Assembly (NCBI GenBank): GCA_013329215.1
Contig: DUKS01000002.1
Span: forward strand, 13,669 to 77,668
Direction of reading: 5' to 3'
Length of the DNA: 64,000 nucleotides
DNA from: Nanobdellota archaeon
GTDB lineage: Archaea; Nanobdellota; Nanobdellia; SCGC-AAA011-G17; GW2011-AR17
A program made the position numbers and the translations under genes. The notes under the pieces are model-generated. The model saw only the letters and a program-made list of their open reading frames with translations, did not search any database and was not told where the DNA came from. Shown here one piece after another: positions 16,897 through 54,031 of the stretch; the first letter of the stretch is position 1, and each line of letters opens with the position of its first letter.

Positions 16897-18954
16897 CTAT
16901 TGGCCTTTCTTTTTCCAGTGGTTTATCACAAAATCCCCATCTACAACTAGCTCGGTTGCATTTCCCCCGACCATCTCATATAGCATATTATTAAATATTA
17001 CTTCGCACACGCTGTTCAGGCTTCTTGCACCCTGCTTTAATTTTTGCGCGGCTTCTGCTATGGCCTGACGTGCATCTTCTGTCACCTCAAGTCTTATCTT
17101 TGCTTCCCTGAACAGCCTTCTGTAGTGCCTGAGCACCGCCCCCTTGGGCTTTGTTAAAATATCCTGCAATTCGTCTCTTGTGAGCTCATATAAGGGCGCG
17201 CGAATGGGAAATCTCGCAACAAACTCAGGAAGGAAACCATAGTCTATAAGGTCCTGCGGCGTTACCGCCTCAAGCAGTTCATCTGTTTTCAGTTCGTTGC
17301 CTTGTGCGCCGAACCCAAGCTTCCCGCCTTTGCTTTTGGCAACTTTTTCTGTAAGGCTCTCCCCTGAGGAACTTTTTGAAAATGCGCCGCCTGCTATAAA
17401 CAGGATGTTTGTTGTGTCTATGGGGATTGAATCGCCATGGCGGCTCAGCCTGACATTTACAATTGAGCCTTCGACAGGCTTCAGCATCTGCTGCTGCGCT
17501 CCCTGGCCCCCCACATCATGCCCTCCTCCTTCTGTTGCTTTTCTTTTGTCTATTTCATCAAGGAAGATAACTCCTTTTTGGGTTTGTTCTAAGTCTTTTC
17601 CTGCCACGAAGTATAAGTCCCTAACCGGCTCATCGGCCTTGCTACCCCAGATGCCTTCATCTGTTATCTTGGATGCGTCAGAAACAGTGAATGGTATTCG
17701 CCTGCCCAGCATCTTTGCGAGGATTCTTGCGCAAGTAATTGCAGTGTAAGTCTTGCCGCAGCCTGTCGGCCCGAGCAGAAGTATGTTGCTCTTTTTCATC
17801 TCTTCATCTTCATCCTCTGCGCCTTTCTCTCCAATGCTTGTGACCCTGACTGCGTGCGAATAAAGGCCCACTGCAATAATGCGCTTTGCTCTTTCCTGCC
17901 CGATAATATATTCATCCAGCCATTCCTTGATTCTTCTTGGCGGCGGGACTTCTATATCTGAATCGCTGCTTTTTGCCAGCGCTTTCATCTCAAGCTCGCT
18001 TGGCATTTTGCCTTTGATATCTGCAAGGCTCTTGATTTGCCTGAGCATGAAAAGGAGCCCGCTTGAAATATCAAATTCAGGGTTAGCCCTTACATAAGCC
18101 AGGCCTTTTTCATATGCCTTGGCAAGGTCGCCTTTAATACCAGGCAAACTCTGGTCAAGAATATACGCCTTGAACAGGAACTGCACTGCCATCGGCACTG
18201 TTTCAGGGGCATTTTCCAGCATGAAATGCCCATACTTGTGCATAACAGCCGCATTGTCGGGCGCTTCATTCTTGCGGTGCTTCATCATCTGCACAAACGG
18301 CATTGTTTCCATGCCCCCCCCTTCTGATTTCTTCTCCCATATCTTTTTTCCGAACTTCGCAATAAGAAAGTCAGGGTCATCAAACTTCAGCCTGCAGGCA
18401 TTGACCATGCATTCATGCGCCTTGTCTTCGTATTCGCTGTTTGTGCCTTTTGCAAGCGTGTAGAGCTCATGCATTGCCGCATGCAGCCTGGCGTCTTCAG
18501 GGAATACAGAAAGCGCAATCTCGCCGACTTTTATCGCTTCGGGCACCATGTAAGCGCCGGCCTTCGGCATTTCCTGCCCGAGGAATTCCATGTATGAAAG
18601 GTAATTGTCAGGCGTTTCCTGTAGCTTTATCAGTGTTGAATGGTCCCTGCATCGCTTCCTGAATTCTTCTGCAGCCGCTGCGGGATTTTTGTATGCCTCA
18701 GACCCCATTCTTCTTCCGCATTCCAGGGACATTCTGCACATTGCAATCCTCTCTTCAAGCGAATCTGTGCTTGTCCCTGCTACATCGAATGTAGTGCGCG
18801 CATCATCAAAATTTCCATCAAGAAAGCTTCTTACGCCCGCTGCCTTTACGGTTGCATATTTCGTTCTCTCTCTTCTAGATGTTGACAGCTCGCCGCAGCT
18901 AAAACCCTTGCGAAAAGCCGCTGTAAGGTCCGTATTTTCAGGCTTTCCCATCAA
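16897..18954 (-). CDS. ClpX-family AAA+ unfoldase paralog 1 with novel ~330-aa helical N-terminal domain (no zinc finger)
   Basis: C-terminal half is ClpX-like: IKEWLDEYIIGQERAKR, LLLGPTGCGKTY, IFLDEIDK, GGGHDVGGQGAQQQMLK, NILFIAGGAF, LGFGAQ (IGF-loop-like), pore loop GIWG, LIDYGFLPEFVARFP; TATA 18975-18988. Confidence 0.75.
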   Translation of the reverse strand: MMGKPENTDLTAAFRKGFSCGELSTSRRERTKYATVKAAGVRSFLDGNFDDARTTFDVAGTSTDSLEERIAMCRMSLECGRRMGSEAYKNPAAAAEEFRKRCRDHSTLIKLQETPDNYLSYMEFLGQEMPKAGAYMVPEAIKVGEIALSVFPEDARLHAAMHELYTLAKGTNSEYEDKAHECMVNACRLKFDDPDFLIAKFGKKIWEKKSEGGGMETMPFVQMMKHRKNEAPDNAAVMHKYGHFMLENAPETVPMAVQFLFKAYILDQSLPGIKGDLAKAYEKGLAYVRANPEFDISSGLLFMLRQIKSLADIKGKMPSELEMKALAKSSDSDIEVPPPRRIKEWLDEYIIGQERAKRIIAVGLYSHAVRVTSIGEKGAEDEDEEMKKSNILLLGPTGCGKTYTAITCARILAKMLGRRIPFTVSDASKITDEGIWGSKADEPVRDLYFVAGKDLEQTQKGVIFLDEIDKRKATEGGGHDVGGQGAQQQMLKPVEGSIVNVRLSRHGDSIPIDTTNILFIAGGAFSKSSSGESLTEKVAKSKGGKLGFGAQGNELKTDELLEAVTPQDLIDYGFLPEFVARFPIRAPLYELTRDELQDILTKPKGAVLRHYRRLFREAKIRLEVTEDARQAIAEAAQKLKQGARSLNSVCEVIFNNMLYEMVGGNATELVVDGDFVINHWKKKGQ

Positions 18955-18999: not shown

Positions 19000-20988
19000 C
19001 TAATTTTTGCCAACCGCTTTCAAAACCTCTCCCCTTCCTACTGAATAGTTCTTTATGCTGCTGCCAGGCAGGTAAAACAGCGCATCCTCAAAAAGTGAGT
19101 CGCATATTGTCCTTAGGCTTCTTGCGCCTGCATTTAGCGCATATGCCTCTTCTGCTATTGTGTCAAGCGCATCAGGCCTGACATCAAGCTTAACATCTGA
19201 CAGCCTGAACATTTCAACATACTGCGGTATGACCGCATCTGCGGGCTCTGTAAGTATCTTCCTTAATTCCCGCTCGCTTAGCTGCTCAAGCACAATCCTG
19301 TGGTGCAGCCTGCCAACAAACTCGGGTATGAAGCCGTATTCTATCAGGTCCTTGTCTGTGAGGCGGCCGGATATGCCCTTATTCTTGGGCGCTTCTTCAT
19401 GCCCGCCCATTCTAAACCCAATGTGCTTCTCTCTTGCGCCTATAACCTCTCCGATGCTGCCGCCTTCATTTGAAAAGGAAAATGCGCCGCCGACTACAAA
19501 CAGGATATTTGTCGTGTCTATCTGTATATATTTCCCCTGGCTTACTTCAACATTCACGACAGAGCCTTCAAGCAGCTTTAGATACTGCTGCTGCGCCCCC
19601 TCGCCGTTTACGTCCTTGCCCCCTCCCTTTATAGCCCTTATCTTGTCTGCTTCATCAAGATAGACAATCCCTCTTTGCGCGAGCTCAACATTCCCATTTG
19701 CAGCCCCCAGCAAGGCCAGGAGGCACTGCTCTGCTTTGTCCCCCACATATCCGGCGCTTGTCACTTTTGAAGTATCAATCACGACAAACGGAACACCTGA
19801 CATTTTAGCAAGCATGTTAAGCATGTATGTTTTTCCAGAGCCTGTCGGCCCAAGCAGGAGCATGTTGCTCTTGTCCAGCTTTTTCGCATTTTTGTCCATC
19901 GCCTGCCTAAGCCTGAGCAGGTGCATGTAATAGCCGACAGAAACCCCCATCTTTGCTTTTTCCTGTCCTATGACATAATCATCAAGGTGCGCCTTGATTT
20001 CCCGCGGCAGGACTACTTTAACCTCTTTTGAAAACTCCTTGACCTCATCCACTCTTGTTGCATTCGGGTTTTCGTTGCGCAGCTCTTTTTTCAGCTTGGC
20101 GACTTCTGCATAATTTTTGTGCAGCGCCTTAAACTGTTCCCCGTTCTTTCTCCTCCTGAGGCTTGCAGCTGCCTTGTCAAACGCTTCAACGACATCTTTT
20201 TTAATGCCATCAAGCGTCGGCTTTCCTTTCCACGCTTTGTATAAAGTGTAGAGCGCCCATTCTTCATGCGTATTAATGTTCCTGAGCATGTACCTGCCAT
20301 ATTTCTGCAGCGCTTCCGGATTTCTAAGTATTGCGTGCCCTTTGTATTCCATAATAATATAAAATGGAGCCTTTTTCATCTCAAACACCTCGCCTGGCTG
20401 CCAGAGCATTTTGCCGAATTCATTAATGAGGTAGTCGGGGTCATCGAACTTCAGCTTCACCAGCGCTTCAAGCCTTTTTTGCGCTTCTTTGTAGTTTTCG
20501 GTAAACACATATAGCTCGTACATCTCTGAATGAATCCTGTGGTCTTCCGGAAATCTTTCAAGTGCAATTTCCCCTACCCTTATGGCTTCAGCCATCATGT
20601 TTATGTGATGCACTTCCGCCATATCCTTTCCAAGAAAGTTCATGTACGACAGGAAGTTGTCAGCTGTCTCATGCGTTCTTATCGTGAACTCATAAGTGCT
20701 GCGCAGCCTATTGAATTCCTCTTCTGTCGGGCTTATCCTGAAAAGCTGTTTTGCGCAATCCAGCAGTTTCCCGCTGATTGCGTCTTTTTCAGAAACTGAA
20801 TCGGTTTTTGTGAGGGCTGTCATGAAACTAAACTGCGCCTCGAGGTAGTGCTCATCAAGGTAATCCCTCATTGCGTTTGCTTTATTCAGCCTAAATTCCG
20901 CCTTTATTTGATATAAAGAACATAGTCCGGCACAGTCAAAAGAGCCCTTTAGCCTATCTTCAAGGCTTTTGTTGCCTTGCTCTGCCAT
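19000..20988 (-). CDS. ClpX-family AAA+ unfoldase paralog 2 with the same N-terminal domain
   Basis: IKAHLDDYVIGQEKAK, LLLGPTGSGKTY, pore loop GYVGD, IVYLDEADKI, GGGKDVNGEGAQQQYLKLLEG, HIGFRMGG (IGF loop); N-domain aligns with paralog 1 (DNFLSYMNFLG, AIRVGEIALERFPED, KLKFDDPDYLI); likely start MAEQ at 20988, placing the TATA (21011-21018) 26 nt upstream. Confidence 0.75.
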   Translation of the reverse strand: MAEQGNKSLEDRLKGSFDCAGLCSLYQIKAEFRLNKANAMRDYLDEHYLEAQFSFMTALTKTDSVSEKDAISGKLLDCAKQLFRISPTEEEFNRLRSTYEFTIRTHETADNFLSYMNFLGKDMAEVHHINMMAEAIRVGEIALERFPEDHRIHSEMYELYVFTENYKEAQKRLEALVKLKFDDPDYLINEFGKMLWQPGEVFEMKKAPFYIIMEYKGHAILRNPEALQKYGRYMLRNINTHEEWALYTLYKAWKGKPTLDGIKKDVVEAFDKAAASLRRRKNGEQFKALHKNYAEVAKLKKELRNENPNATRVDEVKEFSKEVKVVLPREIKAHLDDYVIGQEKAKMGVSVGYYMHLLRLRQAMDKNAKKLDKSNMLLLGPTGSGKTYMLNMLAKMSGVPFVVIDTSKVTSAGYVGDKAEQCLLALLGAANGNVELAQRGIVYLDEADKIRAIKGGGKDVNGEGAQQQYLKLLEGSVVNVEVSQGKYIQIDTTNILFVVGGAFSFSNEGGSIGEVIGAREKHIGFRMGGHEEAPKNKGISGRLTDKDLIEYGFIPEFVGRLHHRIVLEQLSERELRKILTEPADAVIPQYVEMFRLSDVKLDVRPDALDTIAEEAYALNAGARSLRTICDSLFEDALFYLPGSSIKNYSVGRGEVLKAVGKN

Positions 20989-21079
20989 GCACATATTATA
21001 TGCAGCCGGCTTTATAAACATTCTCCCTTCTATCACACGTTAGAAAAGCTTTTAATCATGCTTCCGCTTTTTCAGCTGT

Positions 21080-23423: not shown

Positions 23424-24278
23424 ATGGCTTACCTCTCTGAAATCCACGCCTGCCGGTGGATAAAAGACCCTGTAAAGCTTTATATTTCCTTTACAGCTGC
23501 TGACCAGCACAAATCGCTTGCAACAGACATTGCAGTTGCTGTCACAAAAGCATTGCAGGAAGACCACAGGGCTTATCTTTCAAAATACGCAGGGTTTGCA
23601 GGCAAGAAAATAGTTTATGCTGATTCCAATCCTGATTCTGGCTCAAGCGAGCATGAAAATTGGCATACATTCCTTGAGAGAAGAAAGCTGAGCCCTGCTG
23701 CAGGGGAATTCATAGAGGAAGCAAGCTCTTATGTGATAGACGACCTGGAAACAGACAAGCCTTCCTGTGAGTACCTGAAGCACCTCAACTGGAGCAATGA
23801 GTTTGTCAGGACTTACCTTGCCATGCAAAACCGCCCCATATCAGAGCTCGAAACAATCCTGAGGCAGTTCGGGCACATTATCCCTGAATGGAATGAACAG
23901 GTAATGAAGGGCTCGTGCCCATGGCTGCGCTTCACAGACGAGGCAAAATATTTCCTGCTTTATCATCTCTGCTTTGACATAGCTTTCGGAAGGACAATAC
24001 AGGAGGCAAAACGAATCTACACCACTTCACTAAAAATAACAAAAAAGAAGGGTGTTGCAGCAGGGATAAAGCATTTAAGGCGGCGCGCTTCAAAAGCTGT
24101 TTCTGACATGTATGATTTTGATTTTGATATAGGCGGCTATTATCCAAATTATCCTTCCCTTGTGGAATACAGATTTTTCGGCAAAGAAGGGATTATCATA
24201 GAGGCGTGCGGAAAATATCCCTCATGGGTTGTGCCTCTTGACAGGGAAATTAAAAGAAGGGGGCTTGTCCCTGATTGA
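23424..24278 (+). CDS. Hypothetical protein, paralog A of a tandem pair (conserved Cys/His, unknown family)
   Basis: Shares HACRWIKDP, GxFIEEAS, CPWL, YFLLYxLCFD, GIxHLR, DxYDF...DIGGYxPxYP and EIKKRG with the next ORF. Confidence 0.55.
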   Translation: MAYLSEIHACRWIKDPVKLYISFTAADQHKSLATDIAVAVTKALQEDHRAYLSKYAGFAGKKIVYADSNPDSGSSEHENWHTFLERRKLSPAAGEFIEEASSYVIDDLETDKPSCEYLKHLNWSNEFVRTYLAMQNRPISELETILRQFGHIIPEWNEQVMKGSCPWLRFTDEAKYFLLYHLCFDIAFGRTIQEAKRIYTTSLKITKKKGVAAGIKHLRRRASKAVSDMYDFDFDIGGYYPNYPSLVEYRFFGKEGIIIEACGKYPSWVVPLDREIKRRGLVPD

Positions 24279-24328
24279 TGATTTGCAGAATATAAATGCT
24301 TATAAATCTTCAAAAAATCCAGCTTACT

Positions 24329-25183
24329 ATGGTCTCGATTCTTGAGGTAATGGCCTGCCATAGGATAAAGGATCCCGTTCGCTTTTATCTTCACACAACT
24401 TCAGAAGGGGAATATGAATTCCATGCAAGGGAATTTGCTGAAACTGTCGCAAGAAGGCTGATGGAAACAAGAAGGGCCTACCTTGCCACCGTTTCCGCGT
24501 TTGCAGATGACGGCAGGGTCATTTCCACAAAAGAAACGAGCGATGGCGGGCAGGCGCATGAAAGATGGCATAATTACGTGCAGGAAAATAAGCTTGAGTC
24601 TGATGCCGGGGATTTTATAGAAGAGGCAAGCGCTGCTGTAATTGAGTCTGTTACTGACGGATATGGCGACAAGTACCTTGAGCCAAGCAAGAGGTTCCTC
24701 CAGCTCCACCTTCTGGTGCAGAGGAGCAGCGGCGAGGAACTGGAAAAAATACTTGAAAAATTTTTTGTTGGCGACAAGGAACTTGTATATGAAGCTGACA
24801 AGATAATTATGGGCGATTCCTGCCCGTGGCTAAGCTATCTTGCGGAGGCGCCTTATTTTCTCCTTTACGGGCTTTGTTTTGATGTCTGTGCAACGAGGGG
24901 CCTAAGGGCTGCCAAGAGCATATATAAGACTGCGCTGAAAAAATCCAAATGCAAGGGAGTTAATGCAGGGATAAACCACCTCAGGCAGCATGCGACTTCC
25001 TCTGTTGCAGACCTTTATGATTTTTGCCTGTCTGACATAGGGGGATATCTGCCGAGCTATCCCCAATCACACCAGATGGAATATGTCTTTTTTGACAAAA
25101 AGCTGAAGATAGAAGTTTGCTTTGCTTACAAATCATGGCTTGAGATTGTTGAAAAGGAAATAAAGAAAAGAGGCTTTAGATAA
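24329..25183 (+). CDS. Hypothetical protein, paralog B of the tandem pair
   Basis: MACHRIKDP...DSCPWLSYL...YFLLYGLCFD...GINHLRQH...DLYDF...DIGGYLPSYP; start placed at the M that aligns with paralog A. Confidence 0.5.
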   Translation: MVSILEVMACHRIKDPVRFYLHTTSEGEYEFHAREFAETVARRLMETRRAYLATVSAFADDGRVISTKETSDGGQAHERWHNYVQENKLESDAGDFIEEASAAVIESVTDGYGDKYLEPSKRFLQLHLLVQRSSGEELEKILEKFFVGDKELVYEADKIIMGDSCPWLSYLAEAPYFLLYGLCFDVCATRGLRAAKSIYKTALKKSKCKGVNAGINHLRQHATSSVADLYDFCLSDIGGYLPSYPQSHQMEYVFFDKKLKIEVCFAYKSWLEIVEKEIKKRGFR

Positions 25184-25814
25184 ATTCTTTTAACTGCTTC
25201 GTTTCCGGCTTAAATACAAATGCATTCGCCGAGTCAAACCATCCGCACATGAAATTCTCAATCGGTATGCCTGCCCTTTTGCTCAGCATCAGTGCATAGA
25301 AATAAGTCTGTGTTGCCGCATACTTCTCCCTGTCTGCATTCGGCTTGTAGTCCCATACCCATATCTTGTTTCCTTCAATGCGCAGCAGGTCTATATGGCC
25401 TGTAAGCGGCTTCTCCTCCCTGAAGAGATGGCTGAATCTGTCTGTTTCTTCAGGCAAAAGCCAGACAGGCACTTCAATCGCAACCGTATGCCTGTCATTC
25501 TCCAGCATGAACATCTGGACTTTCAGGTGCTCTGAGCTGAACCTTTCCGCGTTTATGCCCAGCCCGTATGAGGTGAGAAGGCTTATGTCGTGGTCGTTGT
25601 GCCTTCTTATGTCAAGGTTCGGCATCTGAAAGCGGAGCTTTGAGCTTCTCGGCCCCTCAAGGAAATATTTGTCAGGGCAGCTTTTGAAAAGGCAGTTCAT
25701 GTATTCGTTCAGCCCGGAAAATCCGCTGCAAAGCAGTTCGCCTGCCTTTTTTTCATGCACGCTGTAGTCGTATTTCCACCCGTGCCAGAATTGTTTTTGT
25801 TTTATCACATCCAA
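25176..25814 (-). CDS. PD-(D/E)xK nuclease superfamily protein (RecB/Cas4-like core with QxxxY)
   Basis: GHIDLLRIEGNK...VWDYKPN...QTYFYALML; TTG start in the track; convergent with paralog B and overlapping it by 8 nt. Confidence 0.5.
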   Translation of the reverse strand: MDVIKQKQFWHGWKYDYSVHEKKAGELLCSGFSGLNEYMNCLFKSCPDKYFLEGPRSSKLRFQMPNLDIRRHNDHDISLLTSYGLGINAERFSSEHLKVQMFMLENDRHTVAIEVPVWLLPEETDRFSHLFREEKPLTGHIDLLRIEGNKIWVWDYKPNADREKYAATQTYFYALMLSKRAGIPIENFMCGWFDSANAFVFKPETKQLKEFI

Positions 25815-25869: not shown

Positions 25870-25900
25870 CAGGCTCTGCATACATTGGTGCGTTAGCGGG
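25870..25900. repeat. Left copy of a 30-bp inverted repeat (28/30 identical to 29210-29240)
   Basis: gcatacattggtgcgttagcgggtgcttag versus the reverse complement of 29210-29240; 23-nt perfect core acattggtgcgttagcgggtgct. Confidence 0.7.
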
Positions 25901-25978
25901 TGCTTAGAATAGGCACGTATCATGCATTTTACCCTATACTTTGCCCGAAAAGTTTAAAAGTAAGGTATATTCACCATA

Positions 25979-26998
25979 GTGACGATGGCAAAAAGGCGAT
26001 TAGCAATAACAGAAGCTTCTACCAAAGATAACAGGAAAGACGCGGAGAAAGGAAAAGTTAAAGCTATTGCTAAACCTAAACAAGAGACTATTCGCCCTTA
26101 CCAAAAAAAGAGGAATAACATACTCTCTAAATTTAAGGTATGCACTAATAAACTCATTCAACATCGAAAAAATCCCATATTAGTCATGTTTTACTGTTCT
26201 GAAGGTGAAGGGAAAATTTTCCCTTGGGATTTGGCGTTGCTTGAGAAAGAATTTCAACATTATTGTGACTGTAGAAGAATTAGCAAGATAGATAAACTTG
26301 ATTTGATTATCTATACTAGGGGAGGGGATGCAAATACCTCTTATCGTTTAGCACAGTTAATAAGGGGCTATGTTAATCATTTGCATGTCATCATTCCAGA
26401 GTTTGCATATAGCGGGGGGACACTTATTGCTTTTGCAGGCAATTGCGTAGAAATGGGGGTTACAAGCGTGCTCTCACCAATTGATGTTCAAATTACTGAT
26501 AATAAAGATAAAGGGATTTCCCTGCTTGGCTTTGAAAAGTTTGTTGAGTTTATAGCAGACAGTTCGGCAGTTTTTCATCTTGAGGAACAAGAAAAAGCTC
26601 ACTTTGCCACGGAACTTATGAAATGTTTAGTTGAACAAGCCACTCCACTTGAACTTGGAGAAATATATAGGTTAAGAAGTATGACAAAGTATCATGCTGA
26701 AACTCTTTTAGCGAATTATATGTTTGGTAATGATGCAAACAAGGCAGCAATTATTCATAATGTAATAGGTGCCTTTACTAAAAATGCACCTTCTCATAGC
26801 TTTGATATGGACTATAATCTTGTTAAAGCAACTGGTATTAAAGTCAAACCAATGGATAGTAAAACATATAAACTCTCAAAGTCCCTAATAGAGCTATGCG
26901 TAAAGTTAGCAGACGAAGGATTAATTTGCAAATATCCGCAAGCCCAACTCAAAGTGAGGGCTCCTTACTTCGGCATATTCGACAGAAAAGATATGTAA
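25979..26998 (+). CDS. ClpP-fold serine protease, SDH (serine dehydrogenase proteinase, ex-DUF114) family
   Basis: IIYTRGGDANTSYRLAQLIRG...HVIIPEFAYSGGTLIAFAGNCVEMGVTSVLSPIDVQ, which resembles my recollection of the SDH/DUF114 family consensus (TPGG...A..I..........YAMSGGTLIAL.AD.IVM....LGPIDPQ); the gene is markedly AT-rich. Confidence 0.6.
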   Translation: MTMAKRRLAITEASTKDNRKDAEKGKVKAIAKPKQETIRPYQKKRNNILSKFKVCTNKLIQHRKNPILVMFYCSEGEGKIFPWDLALLEKEFQHYCDCRRISKIDKLDLIIYTRGGDANTSYRLAQLIRGYVNHLHVIIPEFAYSGGTLIAFAGNCVEMGVTSVLSPIDVQITDNKDKGISLLGFEKFVEFIADSSAVFHLEEQEKAHFATELMKCLVEQATPLELGEIYRLRSMTKYHAETLLANYMFGNDANKAAIIHNVIGAFTKNAPSHSFDMDYNLVKATGIKVKPMDSKTYKLSKSLIELCVKLADEGLICKYPQAQLKVRAPYFGIFDRKDM

Positions 26999-27152
26999 CT
27001 CATGGAGGCGTAAAAATGACATTCGAAGAAAAGTTTTTGGCAAGTCAAGAATACCACCAAAAAATATTAAAGTTTGAGTTTGAGAAACTCGGCAAGTCCT
27101 ATCTTGAAAAAATATAGGAAAAGAAAGTTAATTAATTTCTATTCTTTCTTTT

Positions 27153-28052
27153 TCATATCCTACCCTTACTCATCTGTATCAATTCCAGCCACTTATTCGG
27201 GGAACTCAGCGTTAAGTCCGTCGCCAACTCATAAGGGCATTTATTCAGTGATTGGTGCTTTGTTATGAAATTGTAGTATATCTCATATCCCTTTATGATG
27301 AGATTAGCACTTTCAACACTTCCGTGAAAGCCACGCATGGTTTTAGTCCTTGCCCTGATGCTGTTGTGCATCCTTTCAATGGGATAATTGAAGCTACCGC
27401 CGTCAGAAACAACCACTTTGTTATGTAATACATTGTGTTGGCGAAGCTTGTTATTGTAGCCGAAAACCCGCTTAATTACCCTCGGATAAGCCTGCAACCC
27501 ATCTGTTGTAATCATTCTGACATTGTCGGACTTTGCCTTAACCTGCTCCATAACTCTTTTTATTTTATCCGCACTTCTTGATTTAGCAAACTCCGCAGCC
27601 ACCATAAACTTTGTGTCAGGGTCTATGCTGTCTATCAGCCAATTCTTATCTAATCCGCCTCTGATGTGGTGCTTTCGCCTGTGGTATTCCACTTCATCCA
27701 TCTGGATTTCTTCCCCTGTATTCAGCTTCAAGCTGTCTGTAAAGCCTGATATTTGCCTTGCATACTTCCATAGCCATCTTAGAATTGTGCTGTGGTCTGA
27801 ATTATGCGGGTAGAACGCCTGTAAATGCTCCTGCACCTTTCTTGTGCTTACTCCCCTGTAAAACAGGTCAAGGCACAAGGTTATCTTCTGGGGGCTGTTT
27901 CTCATCCTGTAAAAGCCCTCATCCAAGACAAACCTATGAGAGCAATCCGCACATTTGTATCTCTGAATAAGTCCCCTGTTGCCTGTTTTCCGTAGCCCGT
28001 CTTTCTTGATATGCTCTTTCCCGCATTGTTGGCATTTGATTGCTTTTTCCAT
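27153..28052 (-). mobile_element. IS6-family (IS240-like) transposase with N-terminal zinc finger
   Basis: CQQCGK...CADCSH zinc finger; DDE core with ITTDGLQAYPRVI; TATA tatataaa at 28074-28081 about 25 nt upstream of the ATG. Confidence 0.75.
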
Positions 28053-28056
28053 ACTA

Positions 28057-28099
28057 TTTAGGTACCTAAACAGGTATATAAACCTTTGGGTACCTAAAG
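28057..28099. promoter_or_regulatory. Two GGTACC-centred palindromes flanking the TATA box (candidate operators)
   Basis: tttaggtacctaaa (28057-28070) and ctttgggtacctaaag (28084-28099), centres 28 bp apart, with tatataaa between them; a third copy ttgtaggtacctaa at 28753-28767. Confidence 0.45.
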
Positions 28100-28165
28100 T
28101 AGAAAAGTATATAAATACCTATAATTAATCATAGCTTGTTATAACTTATTATAGTTGATAGGAAG

Positions 28166-28474
28166 GTGAAAACGATGATAAATGGAAGGGCGACAACAAT
28201 ACAGGTGATGGAGAATACAAGACTTTGCCTTGAAAAACTTAAGGTCGTAAAGCAAGAACCTTATGATAATGTCATAAGGAGGATTATAGAGAGAGTATTA
28301 GACTTATGTGAAGAAGGTACAGATTTAGAGACAAAGAAGATGATACAGGGTAGGCTAAATGAGGTTGCTAAAGGGGACGTTATTTCAACAAAGCAGTTAA
28401 GAGATATTTTATTTTCGGGAGGGGAAAAAAATGGTGAAATACGAAAAGGTATGGGCAAGGTCTATAGGGCATGA
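28166..28474 (+). CDS. Putative antitoxin (archaeal VapB-like family)
   Basis: TTIQVMENTRLCLEKLK...EPYDNVIRRIIERVL pattern; upstream of the RelE-like toxin and overlapping it. Confidence 0.45.
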   Translation: MKTMINGRATTIQVMENTRLCLEKLKVVKQEPYDNVIRRIIERVLDLCEEGTDLETKKMIQGRLNEVAKGDVISTKQLRDILFSGGEKNGEIRKGMGKVYRA

Positions 28475-28751
28475 CCTAAAAGGAATAAGTGAAAGAATAT
28501 TTAATGTTATTGATGGTAAAATAGATGATATTCTAGATTCCCCGAACACAAAATCAAAAAAGATAAAAGGATGGGCTTATAATATAAGAAGAATCCGTTT
28601 GGGTAATTACCGACTTTTAATTTATGTGGATGACTTAAACCTAACAGTCTATTGCTTGGCTTATTTACCTAGAAAAAATTGTTATAGCCCAGAAACAAGG
28701 GCAATGATTATGAATATCGCTAGGAATGTTGAAAAACAAAAAAGTATATAA
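28431..28751 (+). CDS. RelE/ParE-family toxin
   Basis: GYNIRRIRLGNYRLLIYVDDLNLTVYCLAYLPRKNCY. Confidence 0.6.
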   Translation: MVKYEKVWARSIGHDLKGISERIFNVIDGKIDDILDSPNTKSKKIKGWAYNIRRIRLGNYRLLIYVDDLNLTVYCLAYLPRKNCYSPETRAMIMNIARNVEKQKSI

Positions 28752-28774
28752 ACTTGTAGGTACCTAATAAAGAT

Positions 28775-28936
28775 ATGAAACTGCAAAAACAGCTTTCTCG
28801 GAAATACGAAGGAAAGGATTATGCCAAGTACGTTATCGTTATAAAACCAACATATATTGAGCAATTGGGCTGGAAGAAGTCCGACGAGCTTAAAGTAGAA
28901 GTTAAGGATAACAAGCTGGTTATAGAGAAGGATTAA
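28775..28936 (+). CDS. Small AbrB/MazE-like (swapped-hairpin) protein, 53 aa; not in the ORF track
   Basis: Manual translation MKLQKQLSRKYEGKDYAKYVIVIKPTYIEQLGWKKSDELKVEVKDNKLVIEKD; a GGTACC palindrome lies 8 nt upstream. Confidence 0.45.
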   Translation: MKLQKQLSRKYEGKDYAKYVIVIKPTYIEQLGWKKSDELKVEVKDNKLVIEKD

Positions 28937-28937
28937 A

Positions 28938-29159
28938 ATGATAAAAGTTAAATCAAAAAGGGGGGTTTTGGCTGAATATCTGAGGAACCCCTATATTGAA
29001 ACAAGCTTAATGGCAGTTATTTATTTTGAATTTAGTAGTATAGTATTAGATTATTTTCCAAAGAAGAAGTATATTTTATTATGCTGGTCTATTATTTCAG
29101 CAATAGTTATAATTGGATATTGGGCATACAGGCAAAAAGCGTATTCAAATAAAACTTAA
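28938..29159 (+). CDS. Small membrane protein (two TM segments)
   Basis: Hydrophobic segments; starts 2 nt after the AbrB-like ORF. Confidence 0.35.
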   Translation: MIKVKSKRGVLAEYLRNPYIETSLMAVIYFEFSSIVLDYFPKKKYILLCWSIISAIVIIGYWAYRQKAYSNKT

Positions 29160-29209
29160 TAATAATAGTTTTCGGACAAATATATTCTTTATATAATCTT
29201 TAATGTGCT

Positions 29210-29240
29210 TAGCACCCGCTAACGCACCAATGTAGGCTCT
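29210..29240. repeat. Right copy of the 30-bp inverted repeat
   Basis: cttagcacccgctaacgcaccaatgtaggc; contains TTAGC-N4-GCTAA; a TATA-like ttataaag lies 14-21 nt downstream. Confidence 0.7.
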
Positions 29241-29291
29241 GCAAAAGGCTTATAAAGTATAGCTGAATAACTTTCAGCGGGGGTAATTATA

Positions 29292-29702
29292 ATGGCAGAA
29301 ATATCAGAACTCGGAAGAAAACAGATTGAGTGCTGGACAGCGCTCAAGGCATATCTTGAGCAGGTCTTTGCAGATGAGAAGCTGGAAAACCTGCTTTTTA
29401 ACGGAAGGCGGGACATAGAACTATTCACGGCTAAAGATGCCGAGGTAAATGCAAAAGGAGCAAAGGTGCAGGTTGTTTATGGAATAAATGGCGTTGGTGC
29501 ATACCGCAAGGTCGAAGATGAAACCCTTTTCCAAAACATATTCCACTACCGCTGGGGGCACCGCCATTCCCCGTTCGCCCTCGCTTTTGCGCTTGCTGCG
29601 GACTCAAAGGACGCGCTGACACCTGCAGACCTGGAAGCAAAACTTGGGCCTTACAGGCAGATGGCGGCCGGCACTGCCCAGCCCGCCCCGCAGGCAAAGT
29701 AA
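29292..29702 (+). CDS. Hypothetical protein with GC-rich Ala/Pro-rich C-terminus
   Basis: ORF only; preceded by the 30-bp repeat and a TATA. Confidence 0.35.
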   Translation: MAEISELGRKQIECWTALKAYLEQVFADEKLENLLFNGRRDIELFTAKDAEVNAKGAKVQVVYGINGVGAYRKVEDETLFQNIFHYRWGHRHSPFALAFALAADSKDALTPADLEAKLGPYRQMAAGTAQPAPQAK

Positions 29703-49348: not shown

Positions 49349-50248
49349 ATGAAAATAACTCCTCTTGCGGCAGACTCTTTCGGCACAAGAAGCATGGCAT
49401 GCTTTGTTGAGACAAAGGACGTGAACATCTTGATAGACCCTTCTGTCTCTTTGGCGCCTATCCGCTATAACAAGCCGCCGCATGCAAGGGAAATAAAGCG
49501 GATGAACGAGCATTGGGAATCTATTAAGAAACATGCAAAGAAAGCAGATATTCTGGTTATAACGCATTACCACTATGACCACCATAATCCTGAATATCCT
49601 GAGATGTACAAAGGAAAGATTGTTCTTGTAAAGCATCCTACAGAGAATATCAATAAAAGCCAGAAGCACAGGGCTGCTTACTTTTTAGAGAAGATTAAGG
49701 GATTGCCGAAGCAGCTTGAATTTAGTGACGGAAAGGAGTTTAAGTTCGGAAAGACGAAGATTGCGTTTTCAAAAGAGACATTTCACGGCACTAATAACCT
49801 ACTCGGGTATGTGACTGAGGTGCTTGTTGATGACAGCAAGGAAAGGTTTGTGCATACTTCGGATATTGAAGGACCTGCAGTGCAAAAGCAGGTTGATTTC
49901 ATATTGAAGGCAAATCCTCAAACATTGTACTTAGATGGACCATTGAGTTACATGCTCGGCTTCAGGTATTCGCAGGCAGACCTGAATAAATCCATCAATA
50001 ACCTGATTAAGATATTCTCCAAGACAAAAATCAAGACATTGATTGTTGACCATCATTTCTTGAGAGACATAAGATGGAAAGAAAGGTTTGAGAAAGTCTT
50101 CAAGGCAGCTGAGAAGAAGAAAGTCAAGGTAATGACTGCAGCTGAATACGCAGGAAAGCCCATTGAAATGCTCGAGGCGCACAGGAATGCCCTGTGGAGA
50201 GAGCATCCGAACGAGAAGGCAAGGATGAGCAAGGTGCTGGAAGAGTGA
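49349..50248 (+). CDS. UPF0282-type metallo-beta-lactamase-fold protein
   Basis: ITHYHYDH motif. Confidence 0.6.
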   Translation: MKITPLAADSFGTRSMACFVETKDVNILIDPSVSLAPIRYNKPPHAREIKRMNEHWESIKKHAKKADILVITHYHYDHHNPEYPEMYKGKIVLVKHPTENINKSQKHRAAYFLEKIKGLPKQLEFSDGKEFKFGKTKIAFSKETFHGTNNLLGYVTEVLVDDSKERFVHTSDIEGPAVQKQVDFILKANPQTLYLDGPLSYMLGFRYSQADLNKSINNLIKIFSKTKIKTLIVDHHFLRDIRWKERFEKVFKAAEKKKVKVMTAAEYAGKPIEMLEAHRNALWREHPNEKARMSKVLEE

Positions 50249-50251
50249 GGT

Positions 50252-50959
50252 ATGGCTGTTTCTATTAAATCTCAGATTAAAAAGCTTGCAAAAGAGTTTG
50301 ATTTGAAATACAATCCTTCATGGTTTAGATTCATTTGGGTATCAAGCAGGGAAAATATTTTGATAGAATTCATTACAGGATGCCCGGACCCGATTTATGC
50401 AAATTACGGCAAAAAGCCTGCAGAAAGAATAAGGAATATGCCTCGCTTTATTGCCTCAATAGAATTTAAGAAATGCCTTAAAAGATATGGCGGGCAGATT
50501 GTTTCAAAAGAAGGTTTTGATAAAAGAACAATAGGCAAGATACAGGAGAGGGCAACAAGGAAAGAACTGCTTGGGGTTTATTCCCGTGCAAGGCTTGGAA
50601 AATACAAGCGGGTTGCATTGCTCACAAAGGCAAAAAACAAAAAGCAGCTTTACTTTCTCTTAAAAGACATATTAAGGCATGAATGGATACATATCCTTCT
50701 TTCAAGAAATAATATTAGCTTTCAATCGCTTAATAAAAAGCACTGGGCTTATGACGAGGGGCTTGTGGAGTTTATGGCCTCCTTTTTGGATAAGGATTTG
50801 GATAATCTTGAAAAGCACATGGCAAATGAAAAATATCCGATGGAAAGAAAGTATTGGGAATATGCAATAAAATTCCGAAAAATGTTAAAAGGCAAGATAA
50901 TGCCAAAAGATAGAAAGAGGACCATATCCCGATTTAAGGCAACCAGTATAACTGGATAA
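50252..50959 (+). CDS. Hypothetical protein with HExxH motif (possible metallopeptidase-like)
   Basis: LRHEWIHILL; basic Lys/Arg-rich. Confidence 0.3.
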   Translation: MAVSIKSQIKKLAKEFDLKYNPSWFRFIWVSSRENILIEFITGCPDPIYANYGKKPAERIRNMPRFIASIEFKKCLKRYGGQIVSKEGFDKRTIGKIQERATRKELLGVYSRARLGKYKRVALLTKAKNKKQLYFLLKDILRHEWIHILLSRNNISFQSLNKKHWAYDEGLVEFMASFLDKDLDNLEKHMANEKYPMERKYWEYAIKFRKMLKGKIMPKDRKRTISRFKATSITG

Positions 50960-50960
50960 A

Positions 50961-51680
50961 CTAATTCTTGCTGACAGTTTTCCACAATAAATTAAAATGG
51001 CCCATATACGTATCGGCAATCTGCCTGCTTTCTATTGAAACAATTGTAATCGGCTCTTCATACAGGATGACTGCAACTTTGTTGCCGTAGATTATTGTGG
51101 GGCTGGGGAAATTATATTCCTCAGGCAGATGCTTTAATGAATTGTACTTCCAATTGGATTTTTTAGCTTTTGCAGTTAATATCTTTGCATAAATGCCTTT
51201 CTTTTCCCTTGCTTCTGCCCAATGTTTTGTATATATGGGAAGAACATCCGAAAACTTTACTTCGCCGCCAATCACCATGAAATCCATGCCGTCTGCAAGA
51301 ATGTCCTGCATTACTGCCTTAAGCCCTTCTTTTCCTGAATATATCTGGGCAATGTCTTTCTTTTTTTCTAATAGCCTTATTTGTTCCAGCTCTTTTACGC
51401 TTTTTTTGATTTCTTCTTCTTCGGTTTCCAGTTTTTTCTTCTTTTCCTCAAATATCTCGATAATCCTGCCCGGCGTCGCAGCATTGTAATATTTTTTCTT
51501 ATTCTTGATTATATAACCGGCAAGCCCTTTTTCCATAAGCCTGTTCAGCACGTCATAAGCAGTTGCCCTGTGAATCTGCGCGCTTTTGATAACATCTGCA
51601 GCTAAACTGCTTCCCATCCTTAGAAGCGCCTTGTACACATTAAGCTCTGTTTCTGTAAGCCCTATTGCCGATGCTTTCAT
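50961..51680 (-). CDS. TrmB-family transcriptional regulator (second copy)
   Basis: N-terminal wHTH (LTETELNVYKALLRMG...ATAYDVLNRLMEKGL) plus C-terminal TrmB domain. Confidence 0.7.
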   Translation of the reverse strand: MKASAIGLTETELNVYKALLRMGSSLAADVIKSAQIHRATAYDVLNRLMEKGLAGYIIKNKKKYYNAATPGRIIEIFEEKKKKLETEEEEIKKSVKELEQIRLLEKKKDIAQIYSGKEGLKAVMQDILADGMDFMVIGGEVKFSDVLPIYTKHWAEAREKKGIYAKILTAKAKKSNWKYNSLKHLPEEYNFPSPTIIYGNKVAVILYEEPITIVSIESRQIADTYMGHFNLLWKTVSKN

Positions 51681-51776
51681 GCATTAAATAAGCCTGCCTT
51701 AATTTATAAATGTTGTCATGCTATATGACTACAAATATTAATAATGACTAAAGAGACATTACTTATTGGGGGTAAA

Positions 51777-52145
51777 ATGAAAAAAATACTTGTATTGGAC
51801 GACCATGAAAAGTGGCATATTCTTGCAGAGAGGGATATAGCCTATATTGCAGATTGCAGCATTGACCATGCATACAGCCTTAATCAGGCAATGGATTTAC
51901 TGAAAACAGGCAGCTATAGCCTTATTGTGTCAGATATTAATCTTAACATGGGCAGTTCTGGCTCTCAGGAGGGGCTATATTTTATAAAATACATCAGGGA
52001 AAGCGGCAGCAAAACCCCCATTATATGCGTAAGCTCAGGCAAATGCCTTGAATCTATTGTATTGCAGGCAGGCGCTGACAAATTCGTTGCCAAATCAGAA
52101 TTTTATCCTGAATTCATAAAAGCTGTTGAGGGGTATTTAAAATGA
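51777..52145 (+). CDS. Stand-alone response-regulator receiver (REC) domain
   Basis: ILVLDD...LIVSDINL...ADKFVAKS. Confidence 0.6.
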   Translation: MKKILVLDDHEKWHILAERDIAYIADCSIDHAYSLNQAMDLLKTGSYSLIVSDINLNMGSSGSQEGLYFIKYIRESGSKTPIICVSSGKCLESIVLQAGADKFVAKSEFYPEFIKAVEGYLK

Positions 52146-53131
52146 AATGGTTCGATGATTTATTCAGCGCATTAAGGCAGTCTTACACAATGGAAGACAG
52201 GAAGAGCTTTCCGTTTGAAATAAGGGATTTGCCTCTGGCATACAAGAAGCTGTGGCTGGAAAAGGTTATGGCTGCCATAGTGCCGGTAAAAGATGTTAAG
52301 GCATTGGCTGAAAGCTTTAATTCAGTCAATGAAATAAGGGTTCCATTTGTGGAACTGTTAAAAATAGCAAGGCAGGAAAAGCATCCTCAAGTTAATTTGC
52401 TCTGCGACTTTTTTTATAAGCTGGCTAAATCCAAAGTTAAGAACTGCCCGTTCAGCTCGGACGGCAAAAACATCAAATATGATAGTGTTGGGCTTAAAAA
52501 AATACTGGCAGAAACTCCTTTTGTTAAAGCTATTGAGCCTAAGAAATTCGGGCAATTATCCGCTTATCTGCACATGCTTGCATGGAACCTGCATACAGAC
52601 TCATTTTCGGGAATATATTATCATGGACCTTATAAACTTGAAAAGGGCATATTGATAATCAGGGAATTTTTTGATTTGGACTGCAGGGAAATCTGGCCGG
52701 AATCTGAGATTCCTTTTAAAACAATAACTCTATTGGCAATTTACAACCCGATGAATATCAAAATGAAGTTTTATACAGAAATGATAAATGACAAGAACTT
52801 TAATGAAGAGCTTATTGAATATGCAGTAATAGTTGATAATAAACCCTTGGCTGAAATAGACCTTCTTTTGAAAGATGTGAAAGAAATTGCGAACAAGCAA
52901 AAATCAAGGTTGCATACCCTGGAAGGCGTGGATATGAAAAAGAAATTTATTGAGATTCAGGGCTTCCGCTTAAGGCATTTGTTTGATGCAGCTGGCATGG
53001 ATTGGAAGCCCGAAAGTGATATGTTGTACGCTCTGGCTATAACTGAGCATGTAAGAAAGTGGGATTTATCCGGAATGTCAAGGGATGAGGCATTTGCAAA
53101 GTTTGAGTCATTTCTTGACCCGAGAAAATAA
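52142..53131 (+). CDS. Hypothetical protein translationally coupled to the REC gene (ATGA overlap)
   Basis: ORF; no recognised domain. Confidence 0.4.
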   Translation: MKWFDDLFSALRQSYTMEDRKSFPFEIRDLPLAYKKLWLEKVMAAIVPVKDVKALAESFNSVNEIRVPFVELLKIARQEKHPQVNLLCDFFYKLAKSKVKNCPFSSDGKNIKYDSVGLKKILAETPFVKAIEPKKFGQLSAYLHMLAWNLHTDSFSGIYYHGPYKLEKGILIIREFFDLDCREIWPESEIPFKTITLLAIYNPMNIKMKFYTEMINDKNFNEELIEYAVIVDNKPLAEIDLLLKDVKEIANKQKSRLHTLEGVDMKKKFIEIQGFRLRHLFDAAGMDWKPESDMLYALAITEHVRKWDLSGMSRDEAFAKFESFLDPRK

Positions 53132-54031
53132 CTATCTCTCTTCTTTGGGCATATATCTCTTATTCGCCTTAATATAATTCTTTATCACCCACACTACAAA
53201 TATGCTGTCTGCTTTCTTTACTTGCGCCCTTTGCAGCGCATTATAATAACTGTCCCTTCCAACATAGGGTATGTCCAGCATAGGATATCCTTTCTTATGC
53301 AAAACAAAGTTCATTAAAATTCTTGAAATTCTGCCGTTGCCGTCCCCAAACGGATGTATTGTAACAAACTTAAGATGCACTAAAGCTGCAAGCTCAACAG
53401 GATGCATTTTAGGTTTGTTTTTTTCATACCAACTGAAAAATTCTTTTAGTAAAGGATAGACTTCAGCAGAAAAAGGCGGCATGAATTTGCTTCCTGAGAT
53501 GGCTACCTGATGTTTCCTTATTATTCCGGCAATATCTGCCTTTGTCTCTTTGAGCAATATTCTGTGCCATTCCTGTACAAGTTGCAATGAAATGTCTTTT
53601 TTGCATTTCAGCATCTCATAAAACAGCTTTTTGTGGCTTTCTGCCTCTTTCACGTCCCTTAGGGGCTTTGATTTTGGCGTTATGCCCCTCTCAAGCAGGT
53701 TTGCAGTTTCCCTCAAAGTCAGGGTTGAGCCTTCTATTCTCTGTGTATCATAAGTGAATTTTGTTGCAAATGTCTCTGTTTCCTTTTCAAGAGCGCTCTT
53801 CGGAGTATTGGCTTTTTCTTTTGAATATCCTACCTTTATTGCATCTAATGTTTTAAAGAATTTTTCCTTGTATATGCTGTTAATGAAATCTTTCTTTATT
53901 TCTTCAATATTCCCGGGTATTTCCTTGCCAAGGTAAATTTCTTTAGTCTGGACTTTGCCATTTATCCTTGCACTGTGTTCAAGGTAGTAATAATCCTGCC
54001 TGCCAATTGACTTCTTCTTGATGTTTGCCAT
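53132..54031 (-). CDS. Fic/Doc family protein
   Basis: HPFGDGNGRISR Fic motif. Confidence 0.8.
   Translation of the reverse strand: MANIKKKSIGRQDYYYLEHSARINGKVQTKEIYLGKEIPGNIEEIKKDFINSIYKEKFFKTLDAIKVGYSKEKANTPKSALEKETETFATKFTYDTQRIEGSTLTLRETANLLERGITPKSKPLRDVKEAESHKKLFYEMLKCKKDISLQLVQEWHRILLKETKADIAGIIRKHQVAISGSKFMPPFSAEVYPLLKEFFSWYEKNKPKMHPVELAALVHLKFVTIHPFGDGNGRISRILMNFVLHKKGYPMLDIPYVGRDSYYNALQRAQVKKADSIFVVWVIKNYIKANKRYMPKEER

Follow-up and report, generated by a model that had tools for sequence, protein, structure and literature searches.

An SDH-family ClpP-fold serine peptidase carried as transposon cargo near tandem ClpX-like genes in a Nanobdellota archaeon

Among serine peptidases of the ClpP fold, ClpP itself (PF00574), a tetradecamer that docks with ClpX or ClpA and whose heptameric rings take up IGF loops in hydrophobic pockets, has its catalytic triad in the order Ser-His-Asp, while the Pfam description of the serine dehydrogenase proteinase (SDH) family (PF01972; NF047768; formerly DUF114) gives the order Ser, Asp, His. 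The NfeD/1510-N protease, which is paired with stomatin in Pyrococcus horikoshii (PH1510/PH1511), and SppA (S49) use a Ser-Lys dyad and are membrane-bound. Phage prohead proteases related to ClpP and S49 form a further group (phrog_11747, phrog_1684, NF045542). As for mobile elements, insertion sequences (IS) with passenger genes, termed 'transporter IS', are described for the IS1595/IS1 group. We found no relevant literature on SDH_protease/DUF114, on ClpX in DPANN archaea or on ClpP-like protease modules. Here we analysed a 64,000-nt stretch of a Nanobdellota genome (contig DUKS01000002.1; hereafter the window), and in it a gene at 25979-26998 on the plus strand that encodes an SDH-family serine peptidase. 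The original prediction had proposed this peptidase as a candidate proteolytic partner of two ClpX-like unfoldases encoded nearby. We conclude with high confidence that the gene is passenger cargo of an IS-derived transposon and, with similarly high confidence, that no genomic link between the protease and the ClpX-like genes exists at the neighbourhood level.

The window represents archaeal core genome, with genes for CDC48, an M24 peptidase, the two tandem ClpX-like proteins, PolB, FEN1 and Trm5/TYW2. The transposon occupies the divergent intergenic region between a PD-(D/E)XK gene (25176-25814, minus strand) and the open reading frame (ORF) ORF136 (29292-29702, plus strand). Its features, from left to right, are the following.

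25872..25880, unstranded: left 9-bp target-site duplication GGCTCTGCA, identical to 29235-29243 and abutting the left terminal repeat.
25881..29234, unstranded: whole transposon, 3,354 bp, 36.6% GC, delimited by terminal repeats, target duplication and composition.
25881..25907, plus strand: left terminal inverted repeat of 27 nt, TACATTGGTGCGTTAGCGGGTGCTTAG, from an inverted-repeat pair found by repeat search.
25953..25960, plus strand: TATA-box-like sequence TTTAAAAG, about 27 nt upstream of the ATG at 25985.
25979..26998, plus strand: SDH-family ClpP-fold serine peptidase of a probably soluble DPANN subfamily, with candidate catalytic residues G115-G116, S145, D169 and H273; D278 is also invariant.
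27016..27117, plus strand: charged, probably helical ORF of 33 amino acids (aa), located 17 nt downstream of the protease stop and preceded by GGAGG as ribosome-binding site.
27153..28052, minus strand: DDE transposase of IS6/IS1-like type that bears a zinc finger at its N-terminus; its gene and the protease operon are convergent.
28166..28474, plus strand: putative antitoxin of 102 aa, overlapping the toxin gene by 44 nt; assigned by position, with no family match.
28431..28751, plus strand: RelE/ParE-like toxin (phrog_1213 RelE-like toxin, E = 5.2e-10; Pfam ParE_toxin, 20 bits, below the threshold of 23).
28775..28936, plus strand: 53-aa protein of AbrB/MazE fold (Pfam MazE_antitoxin, 23.3 bits with E = 6.2e-5; threshold 24.7).
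28938..29159, plus strand: hydrophobic ORF of 73 aa, the last cargo gene, recognised as a reading frame with no function assigned.
29208..29234, minus strand: terminal inverted repeat of the right end, matching the left copy at 26 of 27 positions.
29235..29243, unstranded: right 9-bp target-site duplication GGCTCTGCA, a perfect copy of the left one.

The two terminal repeats share the 27-nt consensus TACATTGGTGCGTTAGCGGGTGCT(T/A)AG, and the window holds exactly two copies of the 24-nt core of the repeat, compared with 0 expected from shuffles. The protease ORF has a GC content of 36.5%, compared with 46.1% and 45.0% in the 20-kb flanks, and ranks in the lowest 2.1% of 1,020-nt windows. The AT-rich composition noted in the original prediction is thus real, and the horizontal acquisition proposed there is borne out by the position of the gene inside a transposon with intact terminal repeats and target-site duplication. 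The transposase matches Pfam DDE_Tnp_IS240 (PF13610) with 39.7 bits (threshold 27), and its NCBIfam scores are 83.5 against a cut-off of 125 for IS6, 63.8 against 100 for IS1 and 27.8 against 28 for the IS1/IS1595 zinc domain. The element resembles the transporter IS in several respects: it encodes one DDE transposase, whose N-terminus bears a zinc finger, it ends in inverted repeats of 27 nt, it is flanked by a target duplication of 9 bp, and its passenger genes lie between the transposase and the ends. It differs in that its transposase stays under the NCBIfam cut-offs of both IS6 and IS1, and in that the window holds one copy only.

We then compared the insertion site with related genomes, using neighbourhoods of up to 10 kb per side here and for all loci below. 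Four independent relatives (L008, L009/L010, L020 and L021) carry a ClpX-like gene with a long N-domain (46-53% identity). The gene order common to all four is FEN1, an optional small ORF, the PD-(D/E)XK gene, a gene of 277-292 aa with no known function, PolB, the ClpX-like gene and M24, and no SDH-like gene was found around the ClpX-like gene in any of the four neighbourhoods. ORF136, which borders the transposon on the right, corresponds to the ORF upstream of FEN1 in L009 (57.5% identity), and the intergenic region that is left once the element and one copy of the duplication are taken out measures approximately 114 bp, as compared with 126 bp in L009. The conserved block lacking the protease in the relatives, together with the reconstructed empty site, indicates that the protease arrived by transposition into this block. 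The insertion, which is probably recent, hit the promoter region that separates two core genes. The distance of 4.9 kb between the protease start and the end of the nearer ClpX-like gene (19000-21036), predicted as 5 kb, therefore reflects the landing site of the transposon.

Between PolB and the PD-(D/E)XK gene the window contains two paralogues (23424-24278 and 24296-25183, both plus strand) with 42% identity to each other and no family match. In the relatives this position is taken by one gene only, of 277-292 aa, so that the pair goes back to a conserved core gene, as yet uncharacterised, which was duplicated in the window.

Metagenome contigs searched with the repeat core gave four matches, among them a related element (L019, 4518-6765, approximately 2.25 kb) with a transposase 59% identical to that of the window. 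Its ends begin TGCATTGGTGC, as in the window, and are flanked by the 9-bp duplication TGAGTATAC. A passenger gene fills the same slot as the protease, convergent with the transposase. Matching ends and transposase show that the repeats belong to this transposase family and that the family carries variable cargo. Where the window element has the protease and the toxin-antitoxin genes, L019 has a 332-aa ORF with a C-terminal membrane anchor and no known function, along with a 49-aa ORF for a zinc-ribbon protein. Two of the four matches (L016 and L017) were set aside: they have 5 mismatches, both repeat ends diverge and no transposase accompanies them. By eye, the repeat-like stretch in L016/L017 reads through as Ala-Ile-Gly-Ala-Leu-Ala-Gly-Ala-Ala.

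We also noted a promoter/operator-like repeat, GTATATAAAC...GGTACCTAA, at 28057-28098 and 28738-28768, that is, ahead of the toxin-antitoxin pair and of the AbrB/MazE-like gene, respectively. It holds the palindrome TTT(A/G)GGTACCTAAA three times, which suggests that the two cargo operons are under shared repression. A second AT-rich stretch of the window (49900-53400, about 37-38% GC) contains a gene for a metallo-beta-lactamase-fold protein, a TrmB-type regulator, two ORFs of unknown function and a Fic/DOC gene, and may be a further acquired island. Two 299-aa ORFs (49349-50248 and 53132-54031) were considered as additional transposase copies and rejected, as they encode the metallo-beta-lactamase-fold protein and the Fic/DOC protein.

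The protease reading frame opens with GTG and spans 339 aa. The ATG at 25985 is the likelier start; it gives 337 aa, as in P0001, a protein of a metagenome-assembled genome labelled 'Nanoarchaeota archaeon' (337 aa) that is 100% identical to the window protease. Judged by the spacing generally seen at archaeal promoters, the TATA-box-like sequence upstream may drive transcription of a leaderless protease mRNA. The sequence motifs quoted in the original prediction were found in the translation, and its assignment to the SDH family is supported by Pfam, SDH_protease (PF01972) scoring 47.6 bits against a gathering threshold of 31.3 (E = 1.5e-12). This match is confined to aa 93-179, corresponding to profile positions 80-166 of 286, and the NCBIfam equivalog model for SDH (NF047768) yields 54.2 bits against a cut-off of 250. 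By these profile scores the protein is a member of SDH_protease at the superfamily or domain level and lies outside the curated equivalog. No PDB chain was found to be similar by sequence. Of two AlphaFold2 (AF2) models, a first, built from 13 sequences, reached a mean predicted local distance difference test score (pLDDT) of 74.8, and a second, built from 53 sequences, a pLDDT of 90.6 and a predicted template modelling score (pTM) of 0.84. The protease has the ClpP/crotonase fold, as had been predicted, and this fold is equidistant from ClpP, NfeD and SppA.

Candidate catalytic residues were obtained from an alignment of 53 sequences (A3; 23-43% identity to the window protein), in which G115, G116, Y122, S145, D169, L243, H273 and D278 are invariant. 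S145, D169 and H273 are invariant also in a second alignment (A1) that takes in bacterial members. In hhalign, G115-G116 and S145 fall on the oxyanion GG and the nucleophile Ser of E. coli ClpP (53 columns aligned, E = 0.01); the E. coli ClpP and ClpX reference sequences served for the alignment of motifs and for negative searches, and for nothing else. The candidate triad thus has the order Ser145-Asp169-His273, with the GG as predicted oxyanion motif, in agreement with the description of the SDH family and unlike the Ser-His-Asp order of ClpP. Identity to ClpP is approximately 14%, and the window protein matches neither CLP_protease (PF00574) nor any ClpP model of NCBIfam. Asp169, about 24 positions after the Ser, fills the region of the ClpP His, while H273, 128 residues after the Ser, sits in a C-terminal helical domain that is absent from ClpP.

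Judged from hydropathy, the window protease is probably soluble and lacks the membrane anchor that bacterial members of the family have. Its highest Kyte-Doolittle mean over 19 residues is 1.32 (at residue 147), a hydrophobic 19-mer (mean of at least 1.6) is missing in 50 of the 53 subfamily members, and none of the members examined individually has such a segment at the N-terminus. Bacterial SDH members have a hydrophobic 19-mer at residues 2-9 that reaches 1.5-1.8. Features common to the window protein and the SDH family as described are GG as oxyanion motif, A-x-S-G-G-T around the nucleophile, S-P-I-D, a His further downstream and the ClpP/crotonase fold. The window protein differs in that only its N-terminal catalytic half fits the Pfam profile, in that it has no N-terminal hydrophobic anchor, in that it possesses an additional helical insertion and is extended at the C-terminus, where Cys317 is nearly invariant, and in that a small ORF always trails the protease gene in DPANN archaea. 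From NfeD and SppA it is set apart by its invariant Ser/Asp/His set and its soluble appearance, and from the NfeD-stomatin operon by a partner gene that encodes a peptide of 33-53 aa, with no stomatin.

Next we determined how the subfamily is distributed. A word-indexed search returned only 9 close relatives of the window protease, whereas an exhaustive profile search returned 6,603 matches at E ≤ 1e-3 and 109 at E ≤ 1e-30, the top-ranked of which mostly align across nearly the whole profile. A narrower alignment (A4) was used for the genome search (two genome loci and one viral locus). The top matches with a name come from Micrarchaeota and Pacearchaeota, and the genome loci from Pacearchaeota and Nanoarchaeia, so that the subfamily has so far been found in DPANN archaea of these three groups. 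Besides the window, nine independent loci were compared (L001, L002-L004, L005, L006, L007, L011, L012, L014 and L015). The genomic position of the protease gene differs at every locus. Transposases of three different families adjoin it in the window, in L002-L004 (DDE_Tnp_1) and in L005 (IS110), a restriction-modification gene lies near it in L007, and in L001, L011 and L014 it stands among ribosomal-protein or translation genes. An AbrB/MazE-like ORF of 52-53 aa recurs at three transposase-linked loci (window, L002 and L005); with a hidden Markov model (HMM) built from the 52-aa ORFs of L002 and L005, the 53-aa ORF of the window was the best match outside the training set (E = 0.0016). In L005 (2118-3037) the protease homologue is split into ORFs of 68 and 234 aa beside the IS110 transposase and is either a decaying copy or the product of a sequencing error.

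At all 10 loci the protease gene is followed on the same strand by an ORF of 33-53 aa, charge-rich and probably helical, that starts between -32 and +17 nt from the protease stop; at the nine loci outside the window its length is 37-53 aa and its start lies between -32 and +12 nt. The small ORF appears to be translationally coupled to the protease. In a leave-one-out HMM test the peptides of six loci were recognised at E ≤ 1e-7 and that of L007 at 0.08, while those of L014 and L015 were not recognised. Similarity of the window peptide to those of L014 and L007 is weak (shuffle p = 0.0025 and 0.017, respectively).

The two ClpX-like genes of the window (16897-18954 and 19000-21036, both minus strand) are tandem duplicates with 38% identity. 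Their products are ATPases of a type conserved in Nanoarchaeia (window, L008, L009, L010, L020 and L021), in which the N-domain is helical/TPR and measures about 330 aa; the gene always stands between PolB and M24. The IGF loops ascribed to them in the original prediction are present, as HIGF and KLGF at the aligned position. A GYVG pore loop occurs in all ClpX-like proteins except the 16897 copy (GIWG), and neither an RKH loop nor a zinc N-domain was detected in the ten proteins examined. The prediction was also right that the protease is the only ClpP-fold gene of the window: tblastn, phmmer and hmmsearch revealed no further ClpP, S49 or SDH-type gene there. In the searched neighbourhoods, no canonical ClpP occurs within 10 kb of any ClpX-like relative, and neither a ClpX-like gene nor ClpP occurs at the nine other protease loci. 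Across all examined loci, ClpX-like and SDH-like genes are found together in the window only. Co-occurrence across genomes, the absence of which had been named beforehand as speaking against a partnership, is thus absent at the neighbourhood level. Further points against the proposed partnership are the intact transposon around the protease, the absence of the protease from the orthologous site in four relatives that keep the ClpX-like gene, a fold that lies as far from ClpP as from NfeD or SppA, and a triad order unlike that of ClpP. As a separate observation, a 300-aa ClpP-fold membrane protease of the NfeD1b_N/Peptidase_S49 type with an N-terminal hydrophobic segment is encoded just past M24 in two of the four relatives (L008, 12978-13880, and L020, 12634-13536, both minus strand); no NfeD/S49 gene is present past M24 in the window, L009 or L021.

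The alternative already mentioned in the original prediction, a cassette-borne protease acting alone, fits these data better, and we refine it to a module of protease and small ORF. In the reading that we consider probable, with somewhat more than even confidence, the protein would be an autonomous, ATP-independent SDH-family peptidase that acts together with a co-translated small protein and is mobile among DPANN archaea. The product of the ORF, a member of the SDH branch within the ClpP/S49 clan, would be a serine peptidase dissolved in the cytoplasm, with the GG forming the oxyanion hole, Ser145 acting as nucleophile, and Asp169 and His273 completing the triad. Such a peptidase would work without an AAA+ unfoldase, and the small protein may be its dedicated substrate, inhibitor or regulator, a relationship that can be likened to that of the NfeD protease with its operon-partner stomatin or of a toxin with its antitoxin. 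The pair rides on the 3,354-bp IS-derived transposon together with the RelE/ParE toxin-antitoxin pair and the AbrB/MazE-like gene, and its closeness to the ClpX-like genes is an accident of transposon landing.

Several points weigh against this reading. At L001, L011, L014 and L015 the module stands amid housekeeping genes with no marks of a mobile element, which fits an ordinary cellular peptidase equally well. The leave-one-out HMM misses the 33-aa peptide of the window (E = 2.4); the idea that this ORF is a clear homologue of the partner peptides was dropped for that reason, and we regard it as their positional counterpart with a good GGAGG site, homology being not proven. The role given to the small protein is purely an inference, of low confidence. 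The protease has no match in PADLOC, so that a defence or addiction role is without direct support. Finally, an [IVLM]GF motif is kept at the IGF-loop position of all ten ClpX-like proteins, the two of the window and eight of relatives.

The alternative that survives best, which we nevertheless consider unlikely, is that of an ordinary housekeeping peptidase of the DPANN cytoplasm, serving for example peptide turnover, which was captured by a transposon in the present genome and whose small ORF is incidental or functionally unrelated. The surroundings of the gene at the four loci just named (ribosomal-protein, translation-factor and tRNA-synthetase genes) speak for it, as do the retention of all invariant residues across diverse members and the lack of a match to defence systems. 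It sits poorly with a genomic position that varies from locus to locus, the absence of the gene from the syntenic site in four close relatives, transposases of different families next to it at three loci, and the disrupted copy in L005. Moreover, the small ORF keeps its place at all 10 loci, and for six of them homology is demonstrable.

An extension of the reading with an autonomous peptidase and a small partner is doubtful, and we put it forward as speculation: protease and tiny partner might form an undescribed conflict module with a role in addiction, as a toxin-antitoxin system or against viruses, which circulates among DPANN archaea on IS-derived transposons along with classical toxin-antitoxin genes. 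The small protein would then restrain the protease or act as its trigger, and mobile versions would in addition come with a regulator of AbrB/MazE type.

That a viral head-maturation (prohead) protease survives here as a remnant or domesticated copy is improbable. Among PHROG families the protein matches phrog_11747 best (E = 3.1e-30), and a 27%-identical member of this family is encoded on an IMG/VR viral contig (L013, 9797-10882, plus strand) downstream of the terminase and between minor and major head proteins, which is the usual position of a prohead protease; phrog_11747, annotated as of 'unknown function', is thus probably a head-maturation protease. Weak matches to head-maturation protease models were also obtained. 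The NCBIfam head-maturation model NF045542, however, reaches 23.9 bits against a cut-off of 120, and a large gap separates the scores of the cellular subfamily (273-354 bits) from that of the viral copy (113 bits). Unlike the distant homologue in the viral head module, the surveyed cellular DPANN loci are devoid of structural virus genes: no terminase, portal or capsid gene was found near the protease at the cellular loci with precomputed Pfam calls or among the ORFs checked in the window element.

Least probable is an archaeal ATP-dependent ClpX-SDH protease in which the IGF loops of the ClpX-like unfoldases would dock onto a ring of the SDH-like protease, since the conserved [IVLM]GF and GYVG loops, the lack of a nearby canonical ClpP, the ClpP fold and the presence of both gene families in DPANN archaea are set against a recent transposon cargo without CLP_protease match, with a deviating triad order and an equidistant fold, four ClpX-like blocks without the protease, nine independent protease loci without a ClpX-like gene in the neighbourhoods searched, and a subfamily in Micrarchaeota and Pacearchaeota with approximately 100 representatives at 50% identity (the 109 profile matches at E ≤ 1e-30), compared with nine clusters of long-N-domain ClpX-like proteins, a count that may be an underestimate.

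The analysis thus removes a tempting but unsupported link between protease and ClpX, and the partner of the ClpX-like unfoldases with IGF loops is to be sought elsewhere in these genomes. It defines a DPANN subfamily, probably soluble, of the almost uncharacterised SDH proteases, always accompanied by a miniature partner gene. Together with this subfamily, it defines a cargo-carrying family of Nanoarchaeia transposons with clear ends, which shows that accessory genes move between reduced genomes.

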